DNA of 64,000 nucleotides from an uncultured Acidobacteriaceae bacterium. Lineage in GTDB: Bacteria; Acidobacteriota; Terriglobia; Terriglobales; Acidobacteriaceae. This document shows positions 11,216-42,239 of this stretch, piece after piece. The notes under the pieces are model-generated. The model was not told the DNA's origin and ran no database searches. It saw only the letters and a list, made by a program, of their open reading frames with translations. The stretch lies in contig CAWHTJ010000001.1 of the NCBI GenBank assembly GCA_963832235.1, forward strand, positions 159,870 to 223,869, given 5' to 3'. Every line of letters begins with the position of its first letter. Positions within the stretch are counted from its first letter, which is position 1. The position numbers and the translations under genes were made by a program.

Positions 11216-11247
11216 TTAGAGAGACGTTGCGAGCAACGTCTCTACGA
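11216..11247. repeat. REP family 1 singlet hairpin
   Basis: GAGACGTTGCGAGCAACGTCTCTAC, 16 bp after the ugd stop. Same unit as the doublets listed below. Confidence 0.8.
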
Positions 11248-11661
11248 CAGCAGTTCTTTATTTATAGCGATTCAGCTTATTTCTTCATCCGCATTCTTCA
11301 TTTCTTCCCGCTCGTTCCTTGCTCATCGGCCTTGCGTGGTGTTTATAGCTGGGGAGCGATCACTCCCACCACGGGCGCCAGCCCTGGGTCATCCAGGGTG
11401 ACCTGTCTGGTAAGCGCCCGCACAAGATGTCCCGCATCGTCACTCCCGAAGGTGCGTACACGGGTCCGCGAGGTGTCTAGAACTGCGCGGCTGAACATCT
11501 CGGCCTGCAGTTTCGACGATATCGGGATTGGAAATCTCAGTCACGGTCGTTCGTCACATCGGCCAATTTTATCTGTGGAAAACGCTTGAGATCGATTCGA
11601 GTTTCGCCTTCGGGAGATGCTCTGACAGCGTGGGATGGCAATTGCTATAATCGAATGCGGT

Positions 11662-11738
11662 GGTGGGAATAGCTCAACTGGCAGAGCACCGGACTGTGGC
11701 TCCGACGGTTGCGGGTTCGATTCCCGTTTCCCACCCCA
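11662..11738 (+). tRNA. tRNA-His (anticodon GUG)
   Basis: GGTGGGAATAGCTCAACTGGCAGAGCACCGGACTGTGGCTCCGACGGTTGCGGGTTCGATTCCCGTTTCCCACCCCA. Has the extra 5' G(-1) typical of tRNA-His. Loop CTGTGGC. Confidence 0.9.
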
Positions 11739-11820
11739 GATTTTCAGGAAATTTCTTTAGCTAGCGCCAGATGTGGCATGATTCCTTCCGGTCCGGCGAC
11801 CCATTTCACCGTACGATCAC

Positions 11821-11897
11821 GGCCCCGTAGCTCAACTGGATAGAGCATCAGACTTCGGATCTGAGGGTTGGGGGTTCGACTCCCTCCGGGGTCGCCA
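11821..11897 (+). tRNA. tRNA-Arg (anticodon UCG)
   Basis: GGCCCCGTAGCTCAACTGGATAGAGCATCAGACTTCGGATCTGAGGGTTGGGGGTTCGACTCCCTCCGGGGTCGCCA. Anticodon stem TCAGA/TCTGA, loop CTTCGGA. Confidence 0.9.
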
Positions 11898-12098
11898 ATC
11901 GATTTTCGAGTTTGGCAGGTTGGCGGCACCGACTTGTGCGCCGTACAGTTAACAAGTGCCGCGGGGTCCTCATTGGTCGGGACCCGGCAGTAACCTTGTC
12001 GGCAGCCGCTAGGCATGCTCTGATTGCTCTGTATAGAGCAAGTTCTAAGAAGTAGGAGCCATGGGTACCCCAAGTCTAGGGTCCGCCAAAAAAACGGC

Positions 12099-12704
12099 AT
12101 GACCACTTTCTCAAGTCCTCTCTTCAGCAGCCCCTGGCTCGGTTTGGCCGTTTGGGGCGCCCTCTACGTCTCGGACTATTCCCTGACGCTGGCATGCGCG
12201 AGGCTGTATCGAGCCAGGGTGAGTGACAAGATCGTGTTTGAAGGAAGCTACGAAATCACGCCACACTTTCAGTCGGACATTGACTCTCTAAGAATTTTCA
12301 GCCCACGCTTCGTCGGTGCCCTGCTTTTGGGCGGCGCTTGGTTGGTCCTCGTCTGGAGGCTCAGCGTAGAATCGCAACCAGGTTTATTCCAGTTCGTGCT
12401 CGGTGCCATGATCGCGAGCCAGTTGGCAGTCCACGTACGACACCTACGCAATCTGTCTCTGTTTCGCTTGATCGCTTACACCGACACCATTCGTGGCCGA
12501 ATCGAATACTCCCGCTCTTCAATGCTTCAGATGTCATCCATCGAACTTCTCGCCTTCTCCGGCCTGTATGTTCTCCTTTTCGTCTTCACCCAAAGCTGGT
12601 TCGTCGTGGGCGGCGCTGTCGCGTGTCTCTCAATCGCGTTAAAACATTGGAGACTCTCCCGCACACACGTTTCCGGCGCAGTACCCCAGATCAGTGCCAA
12701 ATAG
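12099..12704 (+). CDS. Hypothetical integral membrane protein
   Basis: Start at MTTFSSPLF. Four to five hydrophobic segments. No family recognised. Confidence 0.5.
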   Translation: MTTFSSPLFSSPWLGLAVWGALYVSDYSLTLACARLYRARVSDKIVFEGSYEITPHFQSDIDSLRIFSPRFVGALLLGGAWLVLVWRLSVESQPGLFQFVLGAMIASQLAVHVRHLRNLSLFRLIAYTDTIRGRIEYSRSSMLQMSSIELLAFSGLYVLLFVFTQSWFVVGGAVACLSIALKHWRLSRTHVSGAVPQISAK

Positions 12705-12835
12705 AAATCCTGTCGAGCTTCGAGCTTCGCTCGACTGGACAGCCGAGGCGTGTTCAGTTCCATGACATCCTTTACACATTGTTCCGGGACATCCGAGGCG
12801 GCTGCCGCTACGTGATTCCTCTTCCGCCGGCAGCG

Positions 12836-13105
12836 CTAGAACGGGTCGACCTTGGGAAAATGAATGTTCAGCTTATAGCAGACGAAGAGAATCAGGATCG
12901 CACCCAGCGTGGAAAAAATAAGGCCGGCTGGATGGTATCGTTCGTTTCTGGGGCGCGCAAACATGTGGGTCACGGCGCCGCCAATGATCGATCCGATGAT
13001 GCCGAGCACGATCGTCCAGAAGATCGTCATATGCACGTGCATTACCGATTTCGCGATAATCCCCGAGATTAGCCCGATGAGAACATACCAGATCAAGTGA
13101 AACAT
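12836..13105 (-). CDS. GlsB/YeaQ/YmgE family stress-response membrane protein
   Basis: MFHLIWYVLIGLISGIIAK...IVLGIIGSIIGG motif. GGAGG upstream of the ATG at 13105. Confidence 0.8.
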   Translation of the reverse strand: MFHLIWYVLIGLISGIIAKSVMHVHMTIFWTIVLGIIGSIIGGAVTHMFARPRNERYHPAGLIFSTLGAILILFVCYKLNIHFPKVDPF

Positions 13106-13195
13106 AATTTTCCTCCAGCGTTTGCCTTCAGAACGTCGTCGAGTATAACCCACGGCTCGGGCAGGTGACCACTGCCAGCATGTTGATAGGCGGAA

Positions 13196-16120
13196 TTAGA
13201 AATTTACGCGCACACCCATCTGTGTGGCGAAGGGGATTCCTACTGTAGTGCCCGGACCGAAAAAGTCGCCCAGGCCGCCGGCGGGGATCTCCAGTTGCTT
13301 GAGGCTGGTGATGGGCTGGAGTTGGTTACATGCTGGGAAGTCGAGACAGACGTTAGTGGCATTGCCGGAGGCGATGTCGCCCGGCGGAAGGGGTAGCGAG
13401 CTGATGTTTCCGACATAGTTCGCGCCGGGATTATTGCGGTTGAAGATGTTGAAGAACTCGGCGAAGGGACGAACCTCCCAGCGGTCGCCGAATCTGAAGG
13501 GACGGGTAATCCGCAGATCCATTTGGATGTAAGGCGTACCGCGGAAAGCGTCGAGCGCGGTGGGCTTGCCATTCACCGAGATGCGCTGGCTGTTGTCGGC
13601 CCTGGTGATGGTGAACGGCCGGGCGGACTCGGCCTGAAACATGGTTGTCAGTTCGAAACCGCCGGGGATGTCGACTGTGCCCGCGAGCACGAAACGGTGG
13701 CGAACATCTTCGCCCGATGGGCCGTAGTCACCGGGACCGAACGGGTTTAGCGGGTCGCAGACGCCGTTGACATAATCAAACAACTCGCCCAGCACGCATC
13801 CCCAGGTCTGCGCATGCGAGAGCGTGTAGTTGGCGACCAGGTTGAAACGCTTTGACACGTTGCCTTGCAGGTGAAGCATCAGGGCGTTGTAGCTGGAGCG
13901 ATTGTCGGAGCGGAACACCTGGGCGGCAAACGGATAGGCGCGATAGGCGTGATTGCCTTCTTCGTGAGTGTAATCCGCACTCGCGATCCAATTGGAATTG
14001 AATGCGTGTTGCACGCCCGCGGTCGCATGCAGGGCGTAGGGAGTCCTGTAATCAGGATCGATCAGAGCGGCTGGAGGATTTGGCCCCCCGTTAACCGCCT
14101 GCAACGCCGCCGCCCAGCCGTTCTGCGCGAGATCGTTGTAGAAAAGCCCGAAGCCGGCGCGGATGACCGTACGGCCGCTCGCGCCCGGGGAATAGGCGAG
14201 TCCCAGGCGCGGTCCGAATTGTTTGCGATCGTTTTGCGGCACTCGCTCCGGCAACCCAAAAGACGGCAGCAGCGGGAATGACGGATTCGCCGTCTGGTCG
14301 CGCCCGGAAGCGATGAATAGACCGTAGGTAGTCTGCCAGCGCAGGCCATAGTTGAACGTGAGGTGACGCGAAAGGCGCCATGAATCCTGCGCGTAGAGAG
14401 CGAGACGCTGGACATTTTGGGAAAAGGCGCCGTCGCGTGCGGGAGTGGTGGAAGCTCCGTTGGCGTAGTCGATGGAAAACTGGGCGAGATTTGTGGCGTT
14501 CGCCGTGTAGAAAGTCGGATCGTTCGGAAACGAGTGCAACGTCTCCTGGTTCCCCGGGAATGCTCCGCCCAGCACAGGCTCGTGGATAAAGTTCACTCCG
14601 AACTTGAACGAATGGTCGCCGGTGGCATGGCCGAGGTCATAGCGAAACTGATATTTCTGCTGATTGCGCCGCGCCGGAAATAATGTAATCGGCGTGGCGA
14701 ACTGATTGTCGCCGTATGTTTCGAAGCCGGAGACCGTCAGCGTCGTAGAACTAAACGGGAATGCGAGCGCAAAGCCGAGCGTGGAGTTGCGGGTCTGGGT
14801 CAGGTGCAACGAACTGGCGTCGAACACGAATGTTCCCAGCCATGACGGACTAAAGGCGTAGGTGTTGCCGATCACGGTGTTCCAGTAATTATTGTGCGTG
14901 GTCAGTCCGGTGGAAGGCAGCGTAGCCTGCTGTACCAGCGCGTTGTGAGTTAGATAACTGTCTTGCGAGGCGCGCAGGAACCATTGCGATTTCGTCGACT
15001 GCGCCAAGTCAAACCGCAAGGAGCCAATGTAGTCGCGAAATGGAATGGCTACGTTGCGCGGAACCGCGATTGCCGGCGCTCCGGGAATCAGGCCGTCGGC
15101 GGCAAGTTGTGCCAGCGCTGCGAATTGCGTGAGGCTGTTGGGGCTGTAGGCGATGCTGGCGTTCTCATGCACGTATTCAAAGGAAGAGAAGACCCAGAAC
15201 TTGTCGCGCGCAATCGGGCCGCCCAGCGTCCCCACGTAGTTTTGCCGCGAGAACGGCTGCTTGGGGTTGGGCGCGGGGTTTTCGATCGGAAATCGCGCAT
15301 TGAGCGCCGCAGCGCGTTCGTAGAACGATCCGCTGCCGTGCCAGTCGTTGGTTCCGCGCTTCGTGGTGATGACGACCGAACCGGCCGTGGTGCCGCCGGT
15401 GTCGGCGTCTTCGTTCGCGGTGCGCACGGCGAATTCCTGAATTGCGTCGGGAGAAAAATTCTGCAGAAATCCGCCAATCCAGTCGTCGGAGTTATCGCCG
15501 CCGTCGACGGAGAGATCATTATTCAGTCCGGAGCTTCCGCCGGTGGAAACCGCCGTGATGCGCGCCTTGGTGGGGTCGGAGGGCTCCACCGGTTCTGTCC
15601 CGGGAGCAAGATAGGCGATGTTCGCAAAGCTGCGGCTGGCGAGAGGAAGCGTCTGCAAATCCTGACTGGTGACCACGCCCTGATGCACCACACTGACCAG
15701 GTCGATCGGTTGCGTCGTAATCGAAGAGTTCTGACCCTGCACGAAGACGGTTTCTGCCGGGGCCGCAAGCTTCAGCGTAACCGTGACTTCGCGCACCGAA
15801 CTGACGGCGATAGATACGTTCGCCTGCGCAGGCGAGAATCCGGTCGCGCTCACGGTGATGCGGTATGAGCCGGGGAGAAGATCATCCAGACGAAACTCGC
15901 CGCGATCTTCGCTGATGGCCGTGCGCTGCACCGGCGAATCGAGCGACTGCACAAGGATCCGGGCCGAGGGAATGCGGGCGCCAGTTGCGTCCTGCACCCT
16001 GCCGCGGAGAGAGCCCCTTGGGTTCTGTGCGTGCAAAACGGTCGCCAACAGGATTAAGAACAGCGCAGCGAGAAGCGATCTCCGAAGCAAGTCTCTCCTC
16101 ATTCGAACAGAGCTATTCAA
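13196..16120 (-). CDS. TonB-dependent receptor with N-terminal carboxypeptidase-regulatory-like domain
   Basis: 974 aa. Signal peptide, GSLRGRVQDATGARIPSARILV...GSYRITVSATGF (CarboxypepD_reg), C-terminal barrel ending ...MGVRVNF. Confidence 0.85.
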   Translation of the reverse strand: MNSSVRMRRDLLRRSLLAALFLILLATVLHAQNPRGSLRGRVQDATGARIPSARILVQSLDSPVQRTAISEDRGEFRLDDLLPGSYRITVSATGFSPAQANVSIAVSSVREVTVTLKLAAPAETVFVQGQNSSITTQPIDLVSVVHQGVVTSQDLQTLPLASRSFANIAYLAPGTEPVEPSDPTKARITAVSTGGSSGLNNDLSVDGGDNSDDWIGGFLQNFSPDAIQEFAVRTANEDADTGGTTAGSVVITTKRGTNDWHGSGSFYERAAALNARFPIENPAPNPKQPFSRQNYVGTLGGPIARDKFWVFSSFEYVHENASIAYSPNSLTQFAALAQLAADGLIPGAPAIAVPRNVAIPFRDYIGSLRFDLAQSTKSQWFLRASQDSYLTHNALVQQATLPSTGLTTHNNYWNTVIGNTYAFSPSWLGTFVFDASSLHLTQTRNSTLGFALAFPFSSTTLTVSGFETYGDNQFATPITLFPARRNQQKYQFRYDLGHATGDHSFKFGVNFIHEPVLGGAFPGNQETLHSFPNDPTFYTANATNLAQFSIDYANGASTTPARDGAFSQNVQRLALYAQDSWRLSRHLTFNYGLRWQTTYGLFIASGRDQTANPSFPLLPSFGLPERVPQNDRKQFGPRLGLAYSPGASGRTVIRAGFGLFYNDLAQNGWAAALQAVNGGPNPPAALIDPDYRTPYALHATAGVQHAFNSNWIASADYTHEEGNHAYRAYPFAAQVFRSDNRSSYNALMLHLQGNVSKRFNLVANYTLSHAQTWGCVLGELFDYVNGVCDPLNPFGPGDYGPSGEDVRHRFVLAGTVDIPGGFELTTMFQAESARPFTITRADNSQRISVNGKPTALDAFRGTPYIQMDLRITRPFRFGDRWEVRPFAEFFNIFNRNNPGANYVGNISSLPLPPGDIASGNATNVCLDFPACNQLQPITSLKQLEIPAGGLGDFFGPGTTVGIPFATQMGVRVNF

Positions 16121-16186
16121 CAGAGAGTAACCACCTGAAAGAGTTAAAGCCAGGAACGTCGTCAGCCCAGGAGAAGGAGTGAGGTC

Positions 16187-17158
16187 TTAGTCTGACCAGC
16201 GCTGCGACGTGCGGTCCCAGCGATGTTTCTTGAGTTCCGCGAGCAGGTTCTTGTCCAGGGGCCCGGCGTCACTGGCCGCGGTGTTGTGCCGCACGTGCTC
16301 CGGTTTGCGCATGCCGGCAATCGTCGTGCTCACGGCTGGGTGGGACAGGATGAAGCGCAGCGCCATTTCCGGCAGCGTCATCCCTGGGGGAAGGATTTCT
16401 TTCAGCTTGTCGACGCGCTTGATTGTTTTGGCGAGATTCTCCGGACCAAAATATCCCGCGCGCCAATCGTTCTTAGGAAAGGTGGTTTGCAAAGTCATCT
16501 TGCCGCCGAGGCTGCCTTCATCGAGCGGCACGCGGGCAATCACGCCGACGTTGAGTTCCTGGCAAACGGGAAAGAGTTCATCTTCCGGCGCCTGATCGAA
16601 GATGTTGTAGATCACTTGCACCGTATCCACCAGGCCAGTGCGCAGGGCTTTAACGCCGTTTTCCGGTTGCCAGCGGTTGATGCTCAGACCGAAAAAGCGA
16701 ATCCACTTGTCGCGCTTCAGTTTTTCCACCGTCGACCGAAACTCCGGCTCATTGGTCCACGAGTCGTCCCAGACGTGAAACTGCAGCAGATCGATAGTAT
16801 CGACGCGCAACTGCTTGCGGATCAGGTCCGCATACTTGAAGACGTGCTTGGCGGAGAAAACATCGCTGTACTTGTATTCGGGAAGAGCGGGCCATCGGTC
16901 ATTGGCCGGAGGAATCTTGGAGGCAGCATAGAGCCGCTTCTTGGAGTTGCGGGCCATGATCTCGCCGAGCAGGGCATCGCTCTTGCCCTCACCGTAGGCC
17001 CATGCCGTGTCGAAAAAGTTGCAGCCAAGGTCCACGGCAAGCTGCATCGCGGCCAGCGATTCTTGATCGTTCGAACCGCTCCACCCGCTCATCCCCCAGA
17101 GCCCGTGGGCGATCTCGCTGACTTCAAAACCGGTACGGCCGAGCTTGCGGTATTTCAT
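16187..17158 (-). CDS. Aldo/keto reductase
   Basis: MKYRKLGRTGFEVSEIAHGLWGM...FFDTAWAYGEGKSD, canonical AKR N-terminus. Confidence 0.9.
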   Translation of the reverse strand: MKYRKLGRTGFEVSEIAHGLWGMSGWSGSNDQESLAAMQLAVDLGCNFFDTAWAYGEGKSDALLGEIMARNSKKRLYAASKIPPANDRWPALPEYKYSDVFSAKHVFKYADLIRKQLRVDTIDLLQFHVWDDSWTNEPEFRSTVEKLKRDKWIRFFGLSINRWQPENGVKALRTGLVDTVQVIYNIFDQAPEDELFPVCQELNVGVIARVPLDEGSLGGKMTLQTTFPKNDWRAGYFGPENLAKTIKRVDKLKEILPPGMTLPEMALRFILSHPAVSTTIAGMRKPEHVRHNTAASDAGPLDKNLLAELKKHRWDRTSQRWSD

Positions 17159-17271
17159 GAGGGCGTCCTTTGCGAAGAGAATCTGTTAAGAAGCGGACTG
17201 ATCAGCATATATCGAAGCGCGGATTTTCGCCCATCCGGTCGGGGCGTTCCGCTTTACAAGTTGTATCGCCG

Positions 17272-17323
17272 CACGCGAGATCCCTCCCTTCGCCTGAAAA
17301 ACGGCTCCGGGCGGGATGACGCC
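17272..17323 (-). repeat. GTCATCC-headed repeat unit (variant C)
   Basis: Reverse complement GGCGTCATCCCGCCCGGAGCCGTTTTTCAGGCGAAGGGAGGGATCTCGCGTG matches the copies at 59187 and 60514. Confidence 0.8.
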
Positions 17324-17693
17324 CTCGTGAGGGAGCAAAGGGATCGGGGAAGCGGAGTCAGCGGGTTTTTCGATGGGAGTCATTCAAATTTTGGGGCCTC
17401 GGGTAAAGGCTTCTTGGTGTGTAATGAACCTAGATCATAACGATGGAGGTCTCCCAGTGAAATCCGAATACCCTTATAATCCAACGCCCGGGAAGCAAGA
17501 CGAATTGATCGCGCCATCGCCGTCCCGCTTGATCGACGAGAAAATTTCGGACGAGTCGGGCGCGGAAACCAAGTCCGACAGCGCGCTGGCGCCGGCGGGT
17601 CTCAACAATCCTTTCTGGAATTAACCTCAGACTGGCGCCGGTTTCGTCGCAGCGCAGAATTACCGCGACGGCCGGCGCTTTTTCCCGCCCAAT

Positions 17694-19100
17694 CTACCGC
17701 AGTATCGGCAAACACAGGCACGGTCGAATCGAGAAATCCAGCCCGGCCATTTCCTCCAGTGCCGGACGAAGCAGCGAATCGCGGCAAGGCTCGAGCGTAA
17801 TCACAAATGGCAACGAGGCCTTGTCAAAACCTGGCTTCTGCAGCAAAGAGTCGATATTCAAATGATGGGCCGCCATGATTTGAGCCAGGCGCGCCACGAT
17901 CCCCGGCTGATCGCGAACAAAAAAGCGCAGGTACCAGGGCGTTTCAAAATCACTGCTCAGCGTCGGGGTGGAGATGGGCGCGGAGGCGGGTAGGGCGACG
18001 GAGCCTGCCAGTTCTCGCCGGCCCGCACCGGCAGATAGATTTTGCGCGACAGACATCAAGTCAGAAACCACGGCCACCGCAGTTGGGTCGCCACCGGCGC
18101 CCGCGCCGAGAAATGCCATGTCTCCGCCGTACTGGCCAGAAGTAAGGACGAGGTTAAGATTTCTCTGCACCCGGCCGAACGGCGATTCGATAGGGACCAG
18201 GCATGGGCCGACCTCCGCGAACAGAGTGTTTTCCTGCAAGTCTTCCTTCGGGATAGCGGGTTTGAGGACGGCGCGCGAGATTTGGCGGATGGTGCAGCCA
18301 AGTTCGGCGGCGTAGTCGAAATCAACCGCATCAATCGCGCGAATGGTGCGGGCGCGCACGGACTCGGGAGCGACCCGAGTATGCAATCCAGCGAGCGCCA
18401 GAATGGCCAGCTTGGCGCGCGCGTCGCCGCCATCTAAATCCTCGGAGGCATCGGCCTCCGCATACCCCCGAGCCTGCGCCTCTTCCAGCGCCTCGCTGAA
18501 GGGGATTCTGGCGCTTTCGATCCGGCTCAGAATGTAGTTGCAGGTCCCATTCAGAATTCCTGCAATGCCATGCAGCCGGTCTCCGCTCAAACCGGTGCGG
18601 AGCGCGGGAAGAACAGGGACTCCTCCGGCGACCGAGGCGCCGAACTCGATCTGGCATCCTTTGCTGCGGGCTAGTTGCAGAAGATCGGAGCCGTGGCGGG
18701 CAATCAGCTGCTTGTTCGCTGTCACCACCGACTTCCCCGACTCCAGCGCGCGTCGCACAATCTGCTCCGCTGGATTGAGGCCGCCGATCAGTTCGATGAC
18801 GACGTCGACATCCGATTTCAGCACAACCTCTACGTCGTCGGTCCAGATGACATCGCTCGGAACCCAGGGCTGCTTCTTTCTTTCCACATTGCGGTTGCAG
18901 ATGTGGGTGAGGCGAAGAGAACCGTTCCCGTTCTCGCACAGAATTTTTGCCACCGCGCGACCAACGGTTCCAAATCCGATCAAGGCAACCCGGCAGGCGG
19001 AGCTTCGTTGCTGGCGAGGGCGGGCGCCCAATTTCGCCGCCGGTTTTGAAATACGCTTGGGCAAGGAATCAATCTCGCTCGAAAAAGAATTCCTTATCAT
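17694..19100 (-). CDS. hom: Homoserine dehydrogenase
   Basis: VALIGFGTVGRAVAKIL NAD-binding site, catalytic core, C-terminal ACT-like domain. Start taken at MIRNSF (19100); the N-terminus is uncertain. Confidence 0.85.
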   Translation of the reverse strand: MIRNSFSSEIDSLPKRISKPAAKLGARPRQQRSSACRVALIGFGTVGRAVAKILCENGNGSLRLTHICNRNVERKKQPWVPSDVIWTDDVEVVLKSDVDVVIELIGGLNPAEQIVRRALESGKSVVTANKQLIARHGSDLLQLARSKGCQIEFGASVAGGVPVLPALRTGLSGDRLHGIAGILNGTCNYILSRIESARIPFSEALEEAQARGYAEADASEDLDGGDARAKLAILALAGLHTRVAPESVRARTIRAIDAVDFDYAAELGCTIRQISRAVLKPAIPKEDLQENTLFAEVGPCLVPIESPFGRVQRNLNLVLTSGQYGGDMAFLGAGAGGDPTAVAVVSDLMSVAQNLSAGAGRRELAGSVALPASAPISTPTLSSDFETPWYLRFFVRDQPGIVARLAQIMAAHHLNIDSLLQKPGFDKASLPFVITLEPCRDSLLRPALEEMAGLDFSIRPCLCLPILR

Positions 19101-21609: not shown

Positions 21610-21745
21610 CCACAGGGGCTAAAGCCCGCTCCCATTTCCAAGCGCTTTACGCGGCCCTAGAAGGGCCGCTCTTCCACGGCGAAGCACGCGTTTGCGAGTT
21701 TTTCCGCAGCCTCTTAAAGCGGCACCTTTTCAAAAGCCGTCGTCC
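21610..21745 (-). repeat. ~135-bp intergenic repeat (family 4)
   Basis: The reverse complement aligns with 45866-46004 and 49761-49878 (GCGTGCTTCGCCGTGGAAGAGCGGCCCTT..AGGGCCGCGTAA...GCGGGCTTTAGCCCCTGTGG). Confidence 0.75.
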
Positions 21746-23156: not shown

Positions 23157-23190
23157 AAATAGCTCCTGCTCTTGGCTCTTGGCTCAAGCC

Positions 23191-23302
23191 AACAAGTCGT
23201 AGAGACGTTGCCTGCAACGTCTTGCCGGCGGCGTTTCGAAACTCTTTGCTCTTACCGATGCTGCCGGCGGAGACGTAGCAAGCTACGTCTCTACGACTTG
23301 TT
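23191..23302. repeat. REP family 1 doublet (REPIN-like), copy B
   Basis: AACAAGTCGTAGAGACGTTGCCTGCAACGTCT...GGAGACGTAGCAAGCTACGTCTCTACGACTTGTT, with a 17-bp terminal inverted repeat. Confidence 0.85.
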
Positions 23303-24292
23303 GCAAAGTTGGCGCGCGGCTTCTGACACCGTTTCTTCCGTCGGCACCGTCACATCTTCCAGCGGCGGCGAGAACGGAATCGGCACATGCATTGCGCCCA
23401 TTCTTTTTACCGGCGCGTCGAGATCGTAGAATGCTCCTTCGGCGATCACGGCTGCGAGTTCTGCGGTCACTCCGTAACGGCCGTAGCCCTCATCCAGCAC
23501 AATCACCCGCGACGTTTTCTTCGCCGACTCGATGATTGTCTTTTCGTCCAGCGGCCAGGTGGTGCGCGGGTCAACTACTTCCGCGCTGATGCCTTCCTTT
23601 TCCAGCATGTTGGCCGCGCCCAGCGCGACCTGCACCATGCTGCTCGTCGCCACGAGGGTGATGTCCTCTCCTACGCGTTTCACGTCGGCTACGCCTAGCG
23701 GGATCGTGTAATCCTCCGCGGGAACTGGGCCCTTCAGCTTGTACATCATTTTGTCTTCGAAGAACACCACCGGGTTTTCGTCGCGGATGGCGGTTTTCAG
23801 CAAGCCTTTGGCGTCGTACGGAGTGGAGGGCAGGACGACTTTCAATCCGGGCACGTGGCTGAACCAGGCGTGCAGCGATTGCGAATGCTGCGCCGCCGAG
23901 CGCCGGGTCGCGCCGAGCGTGGTGCGCATCACCATAGGGACTTTCCAGTGGCCGCCTGACATGTAGTGCGCCTTGGCGGCTTGATTCACCATCTGATCCA
24001 TAGTGAGCGTGAGGAAATCGCCGAACATGATGTCGACGACGGGCCGCAGGCCCGTCATAGCGGCTCCCACACCCACGCCCGTGAAACCAGCTTCGGAAAT
24101 CGGGGTATCAATGACACGCTCGGCGCCGAATTCTTCCACCAGCCCCGAGAGCACCTTGAACGGCGTCCCAGCTTCGGCCACGTCTTCTCCGAAAATGCAG
24201 ACTCGCGAATCGCGGCGCATTTCTTCGGCGAGTGCTTCCCGCACCGCCTGCGCGAAGGTGAGCTCGCGATCTTGAGGAGCCTGTTCAGGCAT
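23291..24292 (-). CDS. 2-oxoacid dehydrogenase E1 component beta subunit
   Basis: MPEQAPQDRELTFAQAVREALAEEM...transketolase-like pyrimidine-binding and C-terminal domains. Start overlaps the E1alpha stop (ATGCCTGA). Confidence 0.9.
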   Translation of the reverse strand: MPEQAPQDRELTFAQAVREALAEEMRRDSRVCIFGEDVAEAGTPFKVLSGLVEEFGAERVIDTPISEAGFTGVGVGAAMTGLRPVVDIMFGDFLTLTMDQMVNQAAKAHYMSGGHWKVPMVMRTTLGATRRSAAQHSQSLHAWFSHVPGLKVVLPSTPYDAKGLLKTAIRDENPVVFFEDKMMYKLKGPVPAEDYTIPLGVADVKRVGEDITLVATSSMVQVALGAANMLEKEGISAEVVDPRTTWPLDEKTIIESAKKTSRVIVLDEGYGRYGVTAELAAVIAEGAFYDLDAPVKRMGAMHVPIPFSPPLEDVTVPTEETVSEAARQLCNKS

Positions 24293-30905: not shown

Positions 30906-30981
30906 GTGGAGACGTAGCTTGCTACGGCTCTTGCCGGCAGCATGGGCGCCGCAGGCAAGACGTTGCGAGCAACGTCTCTAC
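30906..30981. repeat. REP family 1 doublet, copy C (inverted orientation)
   Basis: GTGGAGACGTAGCTTGCTACGGCTC...AAGACGTTGCGAGCAACGTCTCTAC, 13 nt after the receptor stop. Confidence 0.85.
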
Positions 30982-32273: not shown

Positions 32274-32298
32274 GTAGAGACAGTCGCCTTGGCTGTCC
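32274..32298 (+). repeat. REP family 2 hairpin
   Basis: GTAGAGACAGTCGCCTTGGCTGTCC. Confidence 0.7.
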
Positions 32299-33109: not shown

Positions 33110-33395
33110 GCGCCCAGAGACTCCGCTGTCTCTGGAGCATTCTTGCGTCAGCCCGAAGCGCGCAGAACTATCTTTCGCCCCGCTGGGGCTGGCCACGGAT
33201 TTGGCATTCCACCCACGGCTTTCGCCGTGGGCTGCATTCTTGCGCCGCTTAGCGGCTAAAAAGCGGAAGAGTCCCAGATTCCGGATTGGGGGACGTAACC
33301 CTTTCGTAACCCTCCCCGGTGCACAATTTTTGTTGCACTTTAACATTCGTGAAATATCTTGCATGTAGACTTGAAAGATCAGGAGGCCGCTGCCA

Positions 33396-33964: not shown

Positions 33965-34216
33965 GTCATCCTGAGCGAAGGTTTCGTGCGCGAACGCGCA
34001 GGAAAACGCAGTCGAAGGACCCTATGCCTGCCGGCGCCGCTCGGGGCCTATCCCGGAGTTCTCACCTAAAGCGTGATTGAATGTCATTCGGCAAAGTTCC
34101 ACGCGTCTGTCATGAAAATTCCCTGCCCGACGGGAGTGGCGGCGATGCTGGTAGGGATCCTTCGACTCCGCGGAACGATTCGCGATGCGAATCGTTCTGC
34201 TCCGCTCAGGATGAAC
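33965..34216. repeat. MITE-like composite of two inverted GTCATCCTGAGCG-headed units, copy 1
   Basis: Left arm GTCATCCTGAGCGAAGG-hairpin-GCAGTCGAAGGACCC. Right arm is its inverted counterpart, ending CGCTCAGGATGAAC. ~130-bp spacer. Confidence 0.7.
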
Positions 34217-34268
34217 AGCCGGACGAATGAAGTCCCAGACGGTTTTATGAGACGATAACTCCAGCCCC

Positions 34269-36296: not shown

Positions 36297-36597
36297 CCGC
36301 TTAGACGCGTTCCGACCTCCGGGACGCGGTTCCATCCTCGCGCCAGAACACCCGGCGTTGAAACGCCGGGCTATTTTCAGATGTCCCTCCGGGACAAGCG
36401 CGGTTTTCCATCCGCCGCACCTGTACAGCATCTTCCGTAATCTCTCACCTCTACTTACGTGTGTGCGATATTCGGATTGGCCACTAGGCCAGCAACTGCC
36501 GAAGGCCACCAATTTCAAACACCCGCATGACCCAGGTGTCAGGCGCTTTCGTACTCAGCAAGTGACGAGCGCCGCGCGGAGACCCAAGGAAGGTCAC

Positions 36598-37089
36598 ATG
36601 CTTCAGTCGTCGGACTCGTTCAATCCCAAGGCCGCATCGCCGGCTTCCAACCCCAACGCATACAACCCGATCAAAACCGTTACTGCTCCGGTGGATCAGG
36701 CCACCATCGGCCGCACCCTCTATATTAAGGGCGAAGTCAGCGGCTCCGAGGCTCTTTACATCGACGGCCGCATCGAAGGCAAAATCACCATGCCGGAAAG
36801 CCGGGTCACCATCGGCCGCAACGGCAGGGTCGATGCCAGCATTCAGGCCCGCGAAGTTGTAGTCATGGGCAAGGTGACGGGAAACATCGAATGCAGCGAT
36901 CGCGTCGATATCCGCGCCGAAGGCTCGGTCCACGGGGACATCTCTACCACGCGCATCAGCGTGGAAGATGGCGCCGCACTGAAGGGCGGAATTCAGGTCC
37001 GCAGCAGCGAGGGGAAACATAAAGAGGCGCAGAACCAGTCCAAGTCAGCAGAGGCGTCGAAGGCCCTGGCTGCCACGGCCAGCGCCTAG
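36598..37089 (+). CDS. Bactofilin family cytoskeletal protein
   Basis: AAGGAAGG SD. Repetitive beta-helix pattern IKGEVSGSEALYIDGRIEGKI...VMGKVTGNIECSDRVDIRAEGSVHGDI. Confidence 0.85.
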   Translation: MLQSSDSFNPKAASPASNPNAYNPIKTVTAPVDQATIGRTLYIKGEVSGSEALYIDGRIEGKITMPESRVTIGRNGRVDASIQAREVVVMGKVTGNIECSDRVDIRAEGSVHGDISTTRISVEDGAALKGGIQVRSSEGKHKEAQNQSKSAEASKALAATASA

Positions 37090-37166
37090 TTGGCGCAAGT
37101 ATTTGCCGACAAGAACAACGGGGCACGCTCGCGCGTGCCCCTTCTGTTTTCGGCGTACCCGCCCTC

Positions 37167-37243
37167 GTAGAGACGTTGCTTGCAACGTCTCTCTCCATCA
37201 TTCGTGGCGCCGCCGGCCGAGACGTAGCAAGCTACGTCTCTAC
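37167..37243. repeat. REP family 1 doublet, copy D
   Basis: GTAGAGACGTTGCTTGCAACGTCTC...GAGACGTAGCAAGCTACGTCTCTAC, between the convergent bactofilin and msrB genes. Confidence 0.9.
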
Positions 37244-37249
37244 GATGAT

Positions 37250-37672
37250 TTAAGTTTTTGGCTTGAAATCCAAGGCCGCCGAATTCATGCAATAGCGCAG
37301 TCCCGTCGGCGCTGGGCCATCCTCAAACACGTGCCCCAGATGCGCGTCGCACCTGGCGCAGCGAACCTCAGTCCGGACCATGCCGTATTTCGAGTCGCGA
37401 TGCTCCACCACATTGCTGGAGTCCCCGGGCTTGTAGAAACTCGGCCAACCCGTCCCTGAATTAAACTTCGTCTGCGAATCGAACAGCGGAGCACCGCAGC
37501 ACACGCAGTGATACATCCCCGGCTCTTTCGTGTCCCAATACTTCCCGGTAAACGCACATTCGGTTCCCGCCTCGCGGGTCACGTGATACTGCTCGTCGCT
37601 CAGCTGTTTCTTCCACTCGGTTTCACTCTTCGTAATTTTCTCCGCAGTCTTTTCGGCCATCATCAACTCCAT
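37250..37672 (-). CDS. msrB: Peptide-methionine (R)-S-oxide reductase MsrB
   Basis: CVCCGAPLF...[17 protein letters not shown]...RYCMNS: two CxxC zinc motifs and the catalytic Cys. Start is one of M1, M4 or M5. Confidence 0.9.
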
Positions 37673-37721
37673 TTCGCTATTTATTTTGACAATGATTAGA
37701 TGTTTCAGCACGCCAAAAGTG

Positions 37722-38219
37722 TCACTCCACTTCCTCCCCCACCTTCCGATACTTCCCGCGGAAGAACAGCAGCGGCTCCCCCTCCCGCCCCACCACATCC
37801 TCGACCTCCGCAATGAAGATCGTATGATCTCCAGCCACCTCCGCCGAGTGGAGACGGCACTCCAGATATGCCAACGTCCCCTGCAACATTGGAGTCCCAT
37901 GCTTGGTGCGCTCAAACTGCGCCCCGGCCTCAACTTCCGCGTGCTCGTGACTACGCTCCGGACGCGCGTAGTACTCCGAAATCGCACGCTGATCCTCGCC
38001 CAGCACATTGATCCCAAATCGTTTTTTGGCGTGCAGGTGCGCGTGCGTTCGCGTGGTGTGATCCACGCATACCAACACCAGCATGGGATCGAGCGACACC
38101 GACGCGAACGCGTTGGCGGTCATGCCGTGCACTTCGCCGTCGAGATCCACGGTGACGATGGTTACGCCGGTGGCGAAGCGCCCCATTGCTCGTCGAAAAT
38201 CGGCAGAATCCAGGCTCAT
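37722..38219 (-). CDS. Flavin reductase family protein (FMN-binding split barrel)
   Basis: [17 protein letters not shown]...[21 protein letters not shown], canonical Flavin_Reduct motifs. Confidence 0.85.
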
Positions 38220-38222
38220 ATC

Positions 38223-38300
38223 GTAGAGACGTTGCTTGCAACGTCTCTCTTGCCATCGTTCGGTATGCTGCCAGCAAGACGTAGCAAGCTACGTCTCTAC
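38223..38300. repeat. REP family 1 doublet, copy E
   Basis: GTAGAGACGTTGCTTGCAACGTCTC...AAGACGTAGCAAGCTACGTCTCTAC. Starts 4 nt from the flavin reductase ATG. Confidence 0.9.
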
Positions 38301-38351
38301 AGCAGCAACCGCCTACATTACCATGCCCTGCCGTTGTATTATTCGAGTCTA

Positions 38352-39564
38352 GTGACCCCGACCGCAATTACGCCCACGACCCCGGAGCAGCGCTCTAAAT
38401 GTGCCTGTACCCTGGCCGAGGTGCGCCCCGGCGTCCCCATCTCGCGCGAGGCCGCCCTGCACTTCATCCGCTGCCCCGACGACGATTTTCCCGAACTCCT
38501 CGCCGCCGCGCGCGCGGCCAAAGAACGCTTCAAGCCCGGCGTCATCACCTACTCGCGCAAAGTCTTCCTGCCGCTGACCAATCTCTGCCGCGACTATTGC
38601 GGATACTGCACTTTCCGCCGAGATCCCGGCGACCCCGGCGCACACACGATGGCTCCCGACGAAGTTCTCGCAGTCGCCCGCGCCGGAGAAAAACTGGGAT
38701 GCACCGAAGCCCTCTTCTCTTTAGGAGACAAGCCCGAACTGCTCTTTCCCGAGATGCGCGAGGCTTTGCGCCACCTCGGATACAAGTCCACGCTGCACTA
38801 TCTGGAAGCCATGTGCGAACTCGTGCTGCGTGAGACCACTCTGCTCCCGCACCCAAACCCAGGCCTCCTCAGCGCGGAATGGATCGCGCGACTGGGCGCC
38901 GTCTCCCCCAGCATGGGGCTGATGCTCGAAACCACAAATTCAGCCTTGCTCGCTCCCGGCGCGGCTCACGACAACGCTCCCGACAAAGTTCCGGCCAAGC
39001 GCCTGCGCACCATAGAAGAAGCGGGCAAGCAGAATGTGCCGTTCACGACCGGCTTGCTAATCGGAATCGGCGAGTCTGCTAGAGGACCGTGTCGACACGC
39101 TGCTCGCAATCCGCGATTTGCACGACCGCTACGGCCACATCCAGGAAGTAATCGTGCAAAACTTCCGCGTCAAGCCGGCGATTCCCATGGCCCACTGGTC
39201 CGAGCCTACCCGCGGGGAGATGCTGCGCGCCGTGGCGGTAGCTCGCTTGTTACTCCCTAACGTGAATATTCAGGCTCCGCCCAATCTCTCCGCGCCTTAC
39301 TATGAAGAGTTAGTGGACGCGGGCATCAACGATTGGGGAGGAATTTCGCCGCTGACCCCCGACTACATCAATCCGGAAAAGCCCTGGCCGCACCTGGAGC
39401 AACTGCGCCTGCGCACCGAAGCCAGGGGATTTGCCTTGCACCAGCGTCTGCCGGTATATCCGGAATTTATTTCTGCCGTAACGGCCAAGCCCGGACTCCT
39501 GTCAGAAAAAGTGCGCGCCGCGGCCACCGATCAAGGCTTGGCAAAAATAAAGAGGGCGGCATGA
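38352..39564 (+). pseudogene. cofG: FO synthase subunit CofG (radical SAM), +1 frameshift near 39081
   Basis: CRDYCGYC radical-SAM motif. GLLIGIGES in frame 0 continues as EDRVDTLLAIRDLHDRYGHIQEVIVQNF in frame 1. Putative GTG start at 38352. Stop overlaps the cofD ATG (ATGA). Confidence 0.85.
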
Positions 39565-40552
39565 TTTGCGTCCTCAGCGGCGGCACCGGCGGCGCCAAGT
39601 TTATCGATGGGCTCCAGCAGGTCATGCCCGCCCAGGAAATCACCGTGGTCGTCAACACCGGCGATGACTTGCTCTGGTGGGGGCTTTACGTCTCCCCCGA
39701 CATCGACTCCATCACCTACGTGCTCTCCGGCATGCTCAGCCGCGAACGTGGATGGGGCGTGAAAGGCGACACCTTCCTCTGCCTGCAGGCCATGGGACAA
39801 CTCGGCGAGCCCACGTGGTTCCACACCGGCGACCGCGACCTGGCCATGCACCTGCTGCGTTCGCGTCTGCTGGCCGAGGGCAAGACACTCTCCGATGCTA
39901 CCGCCGTCATCTCCGAAAAACTCGGCGTGAAGGCCCGCGTTCTCCCCATGAGCGACTCGCGCGTCGAAACCCGCGTCGATACCCGGCCGGCGAGTTGAGC
40001 TTTGAAGAGTATTTCGTGCAGCGCTGGTATCAGGACCCGGTGAACTCGGTGCGCTTCGCCGGCGCATCCGACGCTGAACCGGCCCCAGGTGTGATCGACG
40101 CTATCGTCTCTGCCGAGGCAGTGATTATCGCCCCCAGCAATCCCATCACCAGCATCGGTCCGATTCTGGCGGTGCCTGGCATTCGCGAAGCGCTGCTGCG
40201 GTGTCACGGAAAAGTTGCCGCCATCAGCCCGATCGTCGGCAACGCTCCTGTCGCGGGTCCGGCGGGAATTCTCATGGCCGCGCAGGGATTGCCCTGCTCG
40301 ATCGTCGGCGTCGCGCACGCGTACGAGGAATTCATCGACGTCCTGGTCTGCGACAATCGCGACAACCGCGCCGCCGAACTGCTCCGCGCCAACGGCTTGG
40401 GCGTCAAGTGCACGCAGACCATCATGCGCACCGCCGAAGACAAGGCGGCCCTCGCCCGCGAAGTGCTCGCGTTCGTTTCGAAAGCTCCGGGGACCCGCGA
40501 TGAGCCGAGGGCCCGTGGCGCCGCCTTTCGACGTTTGGACCATCAACCGTGA
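39561..40552 (+). pseudogene. cofD: 2-phospho-L-lactate transferase CofD, -1 frameshift near 39984-39989
   Basis: MICVLSGGTGGAKFIDGL... in frame 0 continues as GELSFEEYFVQRWYQDP...IAPSNPITSIGPIL in frame 2. Confidence 0.85.
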
Positions 40553-41221
40553 TTCTCATCCCCGTCAAGAACCTGTCTTCAGCCAAGCAGCGTTTGGCTG
40601 CGGTTCTCGATCAACCCTCCCGCACAGCGCTGGCGCAGGCCATGCTGCATGACGTACTGGCCGCCCTGCACGGCTGGAAAAATCGTCCGCCGGTTGCGGT
40701 CGTCACCAGCGATCCATATGCGATAAAGCTGGCCACCGAATATCAGTTCGAAATCATCCCCGACCCCGCCAATCCGGGAGAAACCGGAGCCATCGAGATG
40801 GCCACCAACATCTGCGTCGGGCGTGGAGTCGATAGCACACTGGTGATCCCGGCCGACATTCCGCTGATTCAAGCGTGGGAGCTCGAAGAAATTCTGAAGC
40901 ACGCCCCCGCCGAAGGCAGCGTCCTGGTCCCCGCCGCCGACGGACGCGGCACCAACGCCGCCTTCCGCCGTCCCGCAAATCTGTTCCCCCTGCGCTTCGG
41001 CAACGACAGCTTCAAACCGCATCACGCCGCCGCGCAAGCCACCGGCAAACCGTGCGTAGTGCTGAATCTCCCGGGAATTGCCGTAGACGTAGACAATCCC
41101 GTCGGATCTGCAAGAACTCGCATCGCTCCCCGGGGAAACCCGCGCCCAACGCCTAGCCCGCAAATACGCCCACGTAGCGACAGCCACCTCGGCTGTCCAG
41201 CCGCGCAGCGGCGAGATATGA
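40549..41221 (+). pseudogene. cofC: Guanylyltransferase CofC/FbiD, +1 frameshift near 41104
   Basis: MILIPVKNLSSAKQRLAAVL... GTG start overlapping the cofD stop (GTGA). After VDVDNPV the conserved DLQELASLPGETRAQRLARKY continues in frame 2. Confidence 0.8.
41174..41198 (+). repeat. REP family 2 hairpin (inside the 3' end of cofC)
   Basis: GTAGCGACAGCCACCTCGGCTGTCC. Confidence 0.7.
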
Positions 41222-41248
41222 AAGCTCAGCATTGTCGATCGATAATCG

Positions 41249-42142
41249 ATGTCTTATGAGCAAGCCCGCTGCAGCACAGAAGAAACCAGCCGCGAAGCGG
41301 CGCAAGGATTCAGCCCACGGCGCCAGCCGTGGGTTAGCGGTCCAAGAAATGCCAGCCCCGAAGAGGCGAAAGAAAATCCCGCCGCGACCTCCGATGAACT
41401 TCGCCTGATCCCAATCCCACTCGCCGACGAAATCCGCCCCGGCGACTCCCTCGCCGACAAACTCCTCGCATCCCTCCGCCGGCGCCGCCTCGCTTCCAAC
41501 CCGGCGACATCCTGATCGTGAAACACAAAATCGTCTCCAAATCCGAAGGCCGCCTGGTCGATCTGGCCACGATCAGTCCCTCCGCTGAATCGATCGCATG
41601 GGCGAAACAATACGAGCTCGACGCCCGGGTCATCGAGTTGGCTCTGCGCGAGAGCCGCGCCATCATCCGCCGCAAGAACGGCGTGCTCATCACCGAGACC
41701 CACCACGGCTTCCTCTGCGCCAACAGCGGCGTTGACGTCTCCAACGTCAACGGAGGCAGTCACGCGCTGCTGCTCCCCGAAGATCCAGACCGCTCCGCCG
41801 CCAACCTTCGCCGCGCCCTCAAGAAGCAGAACCGGCCTCGCCATCCCCGTCATCATCACCGACAGTTTTGGCCGTCCCTGGCGCGAAGGCCTGACGGAGT
41901 TCGCCATCGGCATCGCCGGAATGAAGCCGCTGCGCGACGACCGCGGCCGCCGCGACTCCCACGGCTACAAACTGCGCGCCAGCATCGAAGCCGTCGCGGA
42001 CGAACTGGCCTGCGCCGCCGGCCTCGTCTGCGGCAAACTCAACCGCGCCCCCGCCTGCATCGTCCGCGGATTCCGCTACGAATCCGGCCCGGGAAAAGTC
42101 AGCGACCTGCTTCGCCCCGCATCCACCGACCTATTCCGCTAA
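41249..42142 (+). pseudogene. cofE: F420-0:gamma-glutamyl ligase CofE, two frameshifts (-1 near 41493, +1 near 41830)
   Basis: ELRLIPIPLADEIRPGD (frame 2) > FQPGDILIVKHKIVSKSEGR...ANSGVDVSNV (frame 1) > TGLAIPVIITDSFGRPWREG...CIVRG (frame 2). True start is uncertain. Confidence 0.8.
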
Positions 42143-42157
42143 AACTTCCGCTACACT

Positions 42158-42239
42158 GTAGAGACGTTGCTTGCAACGTCTCTTGCCGGCGCCGGCAGTC
42201 GCGACGTGGTGAGAGAGACGTAGCAAGCTACGTCTCTAC
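42158..42239. repeat. REP family 1 doublet, copy F
   Basis: GTAGAGACGTTGCTTGCAACGTCTC...GAGACGTAGCAAGCTACGTCTCTAC, between cofE and cofH. Confidence 0.9.

Follow-up and report, generated by a model that had tools for sequence, protein, structure and literature searches.

Introduction

To our knowledge, systems that pair repetitive extragenic palindromic (REP) sequences, or inverted doublets of them (REPINs), with a REP-associated tyrosine transposase (RAYT) have been studied almost only in Proteobacteria. Here we describe a family of short GTAG-footed hairpins in a 64-kb stretch of the genome of an uncultured Acidobacteriaceae bacterium (GenBank assembly GCA_963832235.1, contig CAWHTJ010000001.1, forward-strand positions 159,870 to 223,869; hereafter the window), which had been noticed in a first-pass annotation made from the letters alone. 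These repeats are very probably GTAG-tagged REPs arranged in heterotypic inverted dimers, in the manner of REPINs or bacterial interspersed mosaic elements (BIMEs), and cognate to a RAYT of subclass 2.4.

The closest described relatives are the REPs of TnpA-Y1 subclass 2.4, which corresponds to group 4 of Bertels and has 'long' and 'double-foot' REPs (Quentin et al. 2018, PMC6006769). Table 1 of that study gives the subclass the motifs NH[IFV]H, WQ and YIxNNP in a protein of ∼190 aa; its members occur in Cyanobacteria, Bacteroidetes and scattered phyla, and in-frame insertion of a REP in the tnpA-REP gene is predominant in them, though not universal. The same authors list Acidobacteria under class 3, with atypical structures, and propose that the double-foot palindrome and the inverted single-foot dimer are related through central deletion of the dimer. 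Group 4 RAYTs are found in 17 bacterial classes, with flanking 16-mers that are modestly abundant at ∼14 per replicon (Bertels et al. 2017, PMC5581495). Neither of these two studies describes GTAG REPs in Acidobacteria. The GTAG-tagged superfamily, with its 24 families GTAG-1 to -24, was defined by Di Nocera et al. 2013 (PMC3733652); in the part of that paper available to us, Acidobacteria are absent from the phyla given for GTAG repeats and are mentioned only for 'TIRYT' Y1 transposases, which are flanked by terminal inverted repeats (TIRs).

Structure of the repeat units

The whole 64-kb window was scanned with the pattern GAGACGTWGCNNGCWACGTCTC, allowing up to 3 mismatches. This returned 11 repeat units, single and paired (Table 1), against a chance expectation of 0, as matches occurred in 0 of 100 dinucleotide-preserving shuffles. 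The units follow the formula GAGACGT[T/A]GC-NN-GC[A/T]ACGTCTC, or equivalently GTAGAGACGT[T/A]GC-NN-GC[A/T]ACGTCTC, and measure 25 nt, comprising a GTAG foot, a 10-bp stem and a 2-nt loop, with the final G of the foot serving as the first base of the stem. The stem is perfect in six units and the remaining five depart from the 22-nt pattern at 1 position, while the foot is GTAG in 10 of the 11 and GTGG in the A-type unit of doublet 3, which also has one stem mismatch. No Rfam family matched the hairpin units at the gathering threshold, the window yielding only three tRNAs and three Acido-Lenti-1 motifs.

Five inverted doublets, their feet pointing outward, account for ten of the units; the eleventh stands alone (minus-strand reading GTAGAGACGTTGCTCGCAACGTCTC), so that doublets outnumber singlets. 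Every doublet is heterotypic, combining one T-type arm (GTTGC/GCAAC) with one A-type arm (GTAGC/GCTAC); the T-type arm is on the left except in doublet 3, which is the other-strand version of the same doublet. In this respect the two arm types are comparable to the Y and Z REPs whose inverted pairs make up the heterotypic BIMEs of E. coli. The first-pass annotation had given the same unit consensus, the same compensatory pair in every doublet, and the spurious peptides RDVACNVS and SKLRLY as by-products of the repeat; direct reading of the six sites together with the pattern search bears out the consensus, the pair recurs in five of five doublets, and the peptides are the translations of the T-type and A-type units, respectively. 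Its sites are all real, although the second, given as 23191-23302, takes in a flanking 9-bp inverted repeat that lies outside the doublet proper. It had also described a palindromic spacer of 27–50 nt, which is true of some copies only: the spacers measure 26–46 nt, an inverted repeat like TTGCCGGC...GCCGGCAA is found in some doublets, and copies 4 and 5 belong to a different spacer subfamily.

In an inverted-repeat comparison the arms of a doublet appear as a 31–33 nt inverted-repeat pair around a short variable centre, which gives the doublets a superficial resemblance to miniature inverted-repeat transposable elements (MITEs). They could in principle be deletion derivatives of a conventional insertion sequence (IS; DDE or IS200/IS605), with the arms as its TIRs and its transposase as the agent that moved them. 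We regard such an origin as highly improbable: each arm is a GTAG-footed hairpin in its own right, some units occur singly, no target-site duplication was seen (the flanks differ from copy to copy except for a CG-type context), and no IS with these ends was encountered in the ∼1.5 Mb of fetched loci, where the only gene repeatedly flanked by units is a single-copy RAYT, in a layout like the published REPtron arrangement.

Folding was computed for the singlet and the doublets. As DNA, the singlet folds at -9.8 kcal/mol (z = -4.4) and the doublets at -25 to -43 kcal/mol (z = -6 to -10), and as RNA the doublets reach -42 to -71 kcal/mol. With either DNA or RNA parameters, each of the five doublets has a predicted minimum free energy (MFE) structure that joins its left and right units in a single long hairpin, and the T/A difference between the arms shows up as two 1x1 mismatches (T.T and A.A). 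This long hairpin is predicted to lie 5.6–8 kcal/mol below the conformer with two local hairpins. The earlier proposal that each hairpin folds on its own is thus only partly upheld: a single unit is predicted to be able to fold alone, while in the doublet the REPIN-type long hairpin should be thermodynamically preferred. Heterotypy would narrow the energy gap between the two conformers.

A REP-flanked RAYT in related genomes

Species-representative genomes were scanned with the exact 22-nt pattern, which yielded at least 120 loci, and several of these gave tblastn matches to RAYT and TIRYT queries taken from the supplement of Di Nocera et al. 2013. Two loci (L115 and L102) contain a 180-188-aa HUH/Tyr open reading frame (ORF) with one unit just upstream and one within the reading frame. 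In a Terriglobia metagenome-assembled genome (MAG; L063), the homologous RAYT gene has one homopolymer frameshift and terminates in a doublet of this repeat. With the repaired protein of L063 as query we retrieved P0244, which NCBI names a Candidatus Sulfotelmatobacter sp. transposase; its locus (L207) sits in MAG GCA_035266345.1, the assembly in which contigs L083 and L119 carry the same heterotypic doublets as the window. At L207, a unit lies 70 nt upstream of the RAYT gene, a heterotypic doublet begins at its TAG stop, and the density is 11 units per 20.5 kb. The layout on a 4.8-Mb acidobacterial contig (L211) is the same, a metagenomic locus (L121) has a doublet 7 nt before the RAYT ATG and a unit across the stop codon, and L206 has heterotypic doublets on both sides of the gene. 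A RAYT flanked by these units, which the first-pass annotation had suggested looking for, is accordingly present in five relatives (L063, L121, L206, L207 and L211).

In four of these (L063, L121, L207 and L211) a REP unit contains the stop codon of the RAYT gene (Table 1). The REP-borne TAG is mostly that of the GTAG/CTAC foot, but in L121 it falls within the 5′ arm of a degenerate unit (GAG ACG TAG). In the same four acidobacterial genes the HUH-Tyr linker is free of REPs, and overlap with a unit is confined to the stop codon; REPs in frame within the RAYT gene were seen in other phyla (L115, L102, L204 and most of L122–L200).

Metagenome contigs were then scanned with an alignment of three RAYT proteins (from L115, L102 and L063), and the best 80 loci were taken. 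A perfect GTAG hairpin is found inside the RAYT gene or within 400 nt of it in 72 of these 80. In a neighbour-joining tree the stem classes (GACGT[T/A]GC, GACGCAA, GACAAGG and GGGC...) track RAYT clades, and the acidobacterial-type RAYTs of L063, L121 and L206 cluster next to other GACGT[T/A]GC-associated RAYTs.

The proteins themselves point to a known family. P0244, P0241, P0127 and the repaired L063 ORF are 178–187 aa long and carry MPNH[VI]H, WQ[SAP]RF and YI[RQ]NNP, while the motifs of the L121 protein deviate slightly (NHLH, YIWQNP). The NCBIfam model REP_Tyr_transpos matches the RAYTs with 40–63 bits (E 1e-10 to 1e-17), which does not reach its equivalog cut-off of 80 bits, and Pfam Y1_Tnp matches them with 14–24 bits at a cut-off of 23. 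Their sole match in the PDB is E. coli TnpA-REP (4ER8, E 1.4e-6), and JGI labels their homologues 'REP element-mobilizing transposase RayT'. We identify them as RAYTs from the REP_Tyr_transpos matches, from 4ER8 as the only PDB relative and from the NHVH / WQ / YIRNNP motifs. Because these motifs match the definition of Quentin et al. 2018 (PMC6006769), the RAYTs of the relatives can be assigned on sequence grounds to the published TnpA-REP subclass 2.4 (Bertels group 4), a point that the first-pass annotation had missed. Acidobacterial Y1 transposases of the TIRYT type were also considered as partners; a homologue (L023:4790-5308) lies 1.2 kb from a unit and is unflanked by units, and this candidate was dropped. 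As a separate observation, in two loci covering the same region (L204:2893-3546 and L205) a subclass-2.4 RAYT gene separates hsdS from hsdR within a type I restriction-modification operon, with a double-foot REP upstream and another inserted in frame.

The core palindrome occurs in many phyla as double-foot singlets, a point likewise absent from the first-pass annotation. The matches listed in the scan of species representatives come from Acidobacteriota, Cyanobacteria, Bacteroidota, Chloroflexota, Desulfuromonadota, Fibrobacterota, Patescibacteria and others. Outside Acidobacteria, 54 of the 82 units among these matches are a perfect 28-bp 'double-foot' palindrome, GTAGAGACGTWGCATGCWACGTCTCTAC, whereas 36 of the 51 acidobacterial units among them have a single foot and a non-palindromic TT/AA-type loop and are often paired. 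GAGACG/CGTCTC are BsmBI sites, so MAG contamination or a cloning artefact was considered; it was rejected in view of the RAYT genes adjoining the palindrome and of its presence in isolate genomes, among them Scytonema NIES-4073, Cylindrospermum NIES-4074, Runella defluvii DSM 17976, Parabacteroides distasonis An897 and Flavobacterium spp. The double-foot palindromes in cyanobacterial and Bacteroidota loci are often bordered by partial copies (half-palindromes, e.g. GTAGAGACGTTGCAT...; Table 1), which suggests nested or abortive insertion events.

Putative mode of spread, turnover and persistence

By analogy with E. coli TnpA-REP and the IS200/IS605 family, the repeats would be substrates of a single-copy Y1 HUH RAYT/TnpA-REP of subclass 2.4 that is encoded elsewhere in the genome. 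In transiently single-stranded DNA (ssDNA), such as the lagging-strand template at the replication fork, a unit or a whole doublet would fold into a hairpin, and the RAYT would recognise the stem and the 5′ GTAG foot before cleaving and rejoining the strand. Over evolutionary time this would seed copies between genes, preferentially at gene ends, where the TAG of the foot can become a host stop codon. The entity copied would be the dimer, that is, T-type arm, spacer and A-type arm. Once inserted, copies would persist for long, and their transcripts would form highly stable hairpins at 3′ ends or in intercistronic gaps, where the copies may acquire a secondary role as mRNA-end protectors or processing barriers. 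Both the ssDNA cleavage-and-joining chemistry and the mobilisation of these copies by a RAYT are presumed here from the E. coli and IS200/IS605 enzymes.

Comparison of orthologous sites gives a view of the repeats over time. The best homologues of the CofG protein encoded in the window are 88–94% identical to it, some of them named Candidatus Sulfotelmatobacter, and through CofG homologues we obtained three syntenic contigs (L201, L202 and L203) in addition to a syntenic Ca. Sulfotelmatobacter contig (L032) with ∼80% nucleotide identity. On these grounds the source of the window is a Sulfotelmatobacter-like acidobacterium. Presence/absence polymorphism, which had been named as a check on mobility, is evident: L201 has 0 units in 21 kb and an empty site 5; L202 has units at sites 5 (decayed) and 6 and an extra unit between cofC and cofE; and L203 has units at sites 3, 4, 5 and 6, of which 5 is decayed and 6 partial. 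Unit densities in the relatives are 0, 4, 5 and 11 per ∼21 kb. At site 4, L201 and L202 carry another palindromic repeat, one also present in the window. These differences show turnover between species; they are not proof of active transposition. That other repeat belongs to a family with the sequence CGTGGAAGAGCGGCCCTTTCAGGGCCGCGTAA (hairpin GCGGCCC/GGGCCGC), a member of which fills the bactofilin-msrB slot in both relatives, and intergenic slots are evidently exchanged between repeat families.

Other copies have stayed in place. Doublet 3 is kept in both L032 and L203, and with its spacer included it is 94.7% identical to its L032 orthologue, compared with 75% for the adjacent coding sequence (CDS) and 51% for the downstream spacer. 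In an oriented alignment of heterotypic doublets, spacer subfamilies proved common to non-orthologous sites, which fits copying of the whole dimer, though these copies are old and diverged. Taking the window and the matches listed together, 18 of 25 doublets are T+A heterotypic and 5 of 25 homotypic; these counts and the shared spacer subfamilies speak for the doublet as the copied unit, but the spacers are diverged and the sample was ascertained by pattern.

Several results weigh against a RAYT-driven REP family. As the first-pass annotation had stated, the window has no RAYT gene, tblastn with RAYT queries finding no match in the 64 kb at E<=1. Spacers vary among paralogous copies, and several of the orthologous ones are old and in decay; by now the family may therefore have lost most of its mobility. 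Conservation in place above that of the neighbouring CDS could just as well stem from selection at the host level as from transposase activity. A gapless complementarity test on the outer 8 nt of the spacers gave 2.59 against 2.57 for mismatched controls, with register shifts probably confounding the comparison. Finally, with only ∼14 flanking 16-mers per replicon reported for group 4 (PMC5581495), strong REPIN-like amplification would be atypical of this group.

Gene context and possible host functions

According to Pfam searches of flanking ORFs and tblastn comparisons with orthologous proteins, all six sites are intergenic, in agreement with the first-pass annotation: four abut a stop codon, doublet 5 lies in a divergent region and doublet 6 is intercistronic. 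The singlet is 16 nt 3′ of the TAG stop (11198-11200) of a UDP-glucose-dehydrogenase-family gene, with two tRNA genes downstream. Doublet 2 lies between a transketolase-like E1-beta gene (-), whose TAG stop (23291-23293) falls within the CTAC foot of the A-type arm, and an M24 peptidase gene (-), and it is framed by the 9-bp inverted repeat CAACAAGTC/GACTTGTTG. Doublet 3 begins 12 nt past the stop of a 1247-aa CarboxypepD_reg/OMP-type gene, ahead of an FrsA-like esterase gene; doublet 4 is between the convergent genes for bactofilin (+) and msrB (-; stop 37250-37252); and doublet 5 separates a divergent flavin-reductase gene (-; ATG at 38219, 3 nt away) from cofG (+). The gap between cofE and cofH is filled by doublet 6, which starts 16 nt after the cofE stop (42140-42142) and ends ∼5 nt before the cofH start (∼42245). 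A TAG within a REP unit thus serves as the stop of the adjacent gene both in the E1-beta-like gene of the window and in the RAYT genes of four relatives, and REP insertion appears to have replaced native gene ends.

This setting, with copies at 3′ ends and between cistrons, raises the question of whether the hairpins are host cis-elements (mRNA stabilisers, attenuators or terminators, or processing barriers) that are under selection and are no longer, or never were, moved by a transposase. The stability of the predicted RNA folds, the T-rich tracts that follow copies 1 and 3, and the conservation of doublet 3 above its adjoining CDS would all agree with such a function. A terminator scan, however, calls none of the doublets, and the reading as simple intrinsic terminators was dropped on that ground; the bactofilin gene has a separate canonical terminator (37120-37141) beside doublet 4, and doublet 5 lies in a divergent promoter region. 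Polarity is also independent of the direction of transcription, since doublets 3 and 6 both lie between plus-strand genes with opposite polarities, and an origin in situ would leave the physical and phylogenetic link to RAYTs and the turnover of slots unexplained. As the whole explanation a host cis-role is therefore improbable, while as a secondary, exapted function it is compatible with RAYT-driven spread.

The position of doublet 5 in a divergent promoter region and of doublet 6 directly upstream of the cofH start could alternatively suggest operators, with a dimeric DNA-binding regulator recognising the near-perfect 22-28-bp palindrome, which is of typical operator size, and so defining a regulon. 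Most copies, though, are downstream of genes or between convergent genes, the flanking genes are functionally unrelated, the units come in inverted pairs with variable spacers, no regulator gene co-occurs with them, and the palindrome is found in many phyla beside or within RAYT genes, all of which leaves an operator function with hardly any credibility.

Relation to described REP systems

The classification as GTAG REPs in inverted dimers, which the first-pass annotation had put forward together with a link to RAYTs, is supported by the structure of the units and by the REP-flanked RAYT of the relatives. GTAG-tagged REPs are defined as extragenic, G+C-rich stem-loops of 20-40 bp that can fold as a single strand and carry a GT[AG]G 5′ foot 0-2 nt from the stem, and the 25-nt units of the window conform to this. 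As in the available part of the account of the GTAG-tagged superfamily (PMC3733652), they are short stem-loops tagged with GTAG at one end and located downstream of ORFs, and they form dimers within the 20-100 bp range given there; occasional insertion into palindromic targets, also recorded in that part, may be compared with the 9-bp inverted repeat around doublet 2.

With subclass 2.4/group 4 REPs they share the RAYT family, as seen in relatives (∼180-190 aa; NH[IFV]H, WQ, YIxNNP), the GT[AG]G foot, the long perfect stem, the REPs flanking the gene, the patchy spread over many phyla and, in non-acidobacterial phyla, the in-frame REPs inside the RAYT gene. They differ in that the acidobacterial units are mostly single-foot and arranged in inverted heterotypic dimers, that the acidobacterial RAYTs examined have no linker REP, and that units are locally dense, with 11 in the 64-kb window and 11 in 20.5 kb of L207 against ∼14 16-mers per replicon.

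The REPINs of Pseudomonas fluorescens (Bertels & Rainey 2011, PMC3116915) likewise consist of an inverted REP pair with a short spacer and a predicted long hairpin, have more doublets than singlets, flank a single-copy RAYT and combine long vertical persistence with gain and loss. Their RAYT belongs to group 3, however, whereas the one considered here is of group 4/subclass 2.4; in addition, the arms in the window differ systematically by a swapped T:A/A:T pair, the spacers are far more diverged, and replication of the doublet is deduced. Similarity to E. coli REPs, BIMEs and TnpA-REP (4ER8; Ton-Hoang 2012, Messing 2012 PMC3479197) extends to the GTAG foot as a guide, the extragenic location at operon ends and the structure that is the only PDB homologue of the RAYT. 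Unlike the perfect 10-bp helices with 2-nt loops found here, the stems of the E. coli REPs, which are of subclass 2.2, are bulged, and BIMEs can be iterated in tandem and bind integration host factor (IHF) and gyrase, whereas no tandem arrays are seen here. IS200/IS605 elements (IS608, ISDra2) are comparable in that a Y1 HUH enzyme recognises an imperfect ssDNA hairpin and a guide tetranucleotide and that the ends carry distinct hairpins, but here the hairpins enclose no transposase, the gene associated with them exists as a single copy, and the element measures 76-96 nt.

The fixed heterotypy invites a further, more tentative reading. Rather than a frozen accident, the combination of T-type and A-type arms may be functional, in an acidobacterial REPIN population driven by a group-4/subclass-2.4 RAYT whose dimers are under purifying selection in place; we consider this rather unlikely as it stands. 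Heterotypy recurs across many acidobacterial contigs and MAGs, with the same two 1x1 mismatches in the predicted long hairpin. It could confer left/right polarity on the dimer as seen by the RAYT, by analogy with the left-end and right-end (LE/RE) hairpins of IS200/IS605 or with the Y and Z REPs of BIMEs, or it could tune the balance between the long hairpin and the two hairpins. If this were true, a REPIN population would exist in a RAYT group so far regarded as weakly REP-associated.

The multi-phylum palindrome, the RAYT family, the double-foot REPs and the intragenic REP copies are already published, and how REP elements are understood to work is unchanged by the present finding. As far as the searched literature shows, the heterotypic, dimer-organised acidobacterial form is an undescribed member of this group. 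It documents a dense dimer-organised REP family in soil Acidobacteria (Sulfotelmatobacter-like), tied to group-4/subclass-2.4 RAYTs, and links the double-foot palindromes of Cyanobacteria and Bacteroidota with inverted single-foot dimers. For annotation and MAG assembly it is relevant that such repeats generate spurious small ORFs, donate stop codons to real genes and mark intergenic slots in which repeat families replace one another.

Table 1. Positions of the repeat units and of other features in the window and, where a locus is named, in related sequences
Feature	Position	Strand	Detail
Copy 1, singlet	11221-11245	-	T-type; core 11221-11242, foot CTAC at 11243-11245
Doublet 2	23199-23294		T-type 23199-23223 (+), 46-nt spacer, A-type 23270-23294 (-); core starts 23202/23270
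Inverted repeat framing doublet 2	23190-23198, 23295-23303		9 bp
Doublet 3	30906-30981		Opposite polarity; A-type 30906-30930 (+), 26-nt spacer, T-type 30957-30981 (-); core starts 30909/30957
Doublet 4	37167-37243		T-type 37167-37191 (+), 27-nt spacer, A-type 37219-37243 (-); core starts 37170/37219
Doublet 5	38223-38300		T-type 38223-38247 (+), 28-nt spacer, A-type 38276-38300 (-); core starts 38226/38276
Doublet 6	42158-42239		T-type 42158-42182 (+), 32-nt spacer, A-type 42215-42239 (-); core starts 42161/42215
RAYT stop within REP, L063	5103-5101	-	
RAYT stop within REP, L121	1028-1030		
RAYT stop within REP, L207	10562-10564		
RAYT stop within REP, L211	10535-10537		
Partial palindrome copies, L035	244-330		
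Partial palindrome copies, L036	7270-7330		
Partial palindrome copies, L043	447-500		
Partial palindrome copies, L082	3256-3310		
CGTGGAAGAGCGGCCCTTTCAGGGCCGCGTAA family	21644-21694	-	
CGTGGAAGAGCGGCCCTTTCAGGGCCGCGTAA family	45922-45972		
CGTGGAAGAGCGGCCCTTTCAGGGCCGCGTAA family	49801-49843		
CGTGGAAGAGCGGCCCTTTCAGGGCCGCGTAA family, L202	8815-8890		Bactofilin-msrB slot
CGTGGAAGAGCGGCCCTTTCAGGGCCGCGTAA family, L201	8240-8330		Bactofilin-msrB slot
Smaller GTAG hairpin	32274-32298		
Smaller GTAG hairpin	41174-41198		
Smaller GTAG hairpin	54015-54043		
Smaller GTAG hairpin	57565-57590		
Smaller GTAG hairpin	12788-12816		Degenerate, other strand
Acido-Lenti-1	33212-33257	+	
Acido-Lenti-1	36351-36396	+	Terminator-like with T-run (36351-36370)
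Acido-Lenti-1	41288-41333	-	
GGCGTCATCCCGA family	17274-17337	-	
GGCGTCATCCCGA family	59173-59238		
GGCGTCATCCCGA family	60514-60565		
62-nt element	34153-34214		
62-nt element	53376-53437		

Other features of the window

The window contains a second, smaller family of GTAG-footed hairpins, GTAG[A/C/G]GACAGCC-N5-8-GGCTGTCC, with 4 matches against 0.36 expected, which could represent another REP family, served by a RAYT of its own. The three Acido-Lenti-1 motifs score 46–51 bits at a gathering score of 37, lie within 8 kb and match one another as inverted or direct repeats, one of them being terminator-like, so that the motif behaves here like another dispersed intergenic repeat. Two more repeats were seen: a dispersed family GGCGTCATCCCGA.CGGAGCC...GGGAGG.A.CTCGCGCG, with copies of 84–90% identity, and a 62-nt element with an internal CGATTCGC/GCGAATCG palindrome, the two copies of which are 81% identical.

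GC skew in 2-kb windows is strongly and persistently negative from ∼34000 to 60000 (-0.1 to -0.33, most extreme at 50–58 kb), whereas up to 24 kb and beyond 62 kb it is positive or close to zero. The genes cofG, cofD, cofE and cofH and an F420-dependent oxidoreductase gene (38412-44178) each align to their orthologues in 2–3 reading frames, with frameshifts at about 39080, 39983, 41470, 41830, 42305, 43040 and 43755, which reflect either many assembly indel errors, as in long-read data, or decay of these genes.

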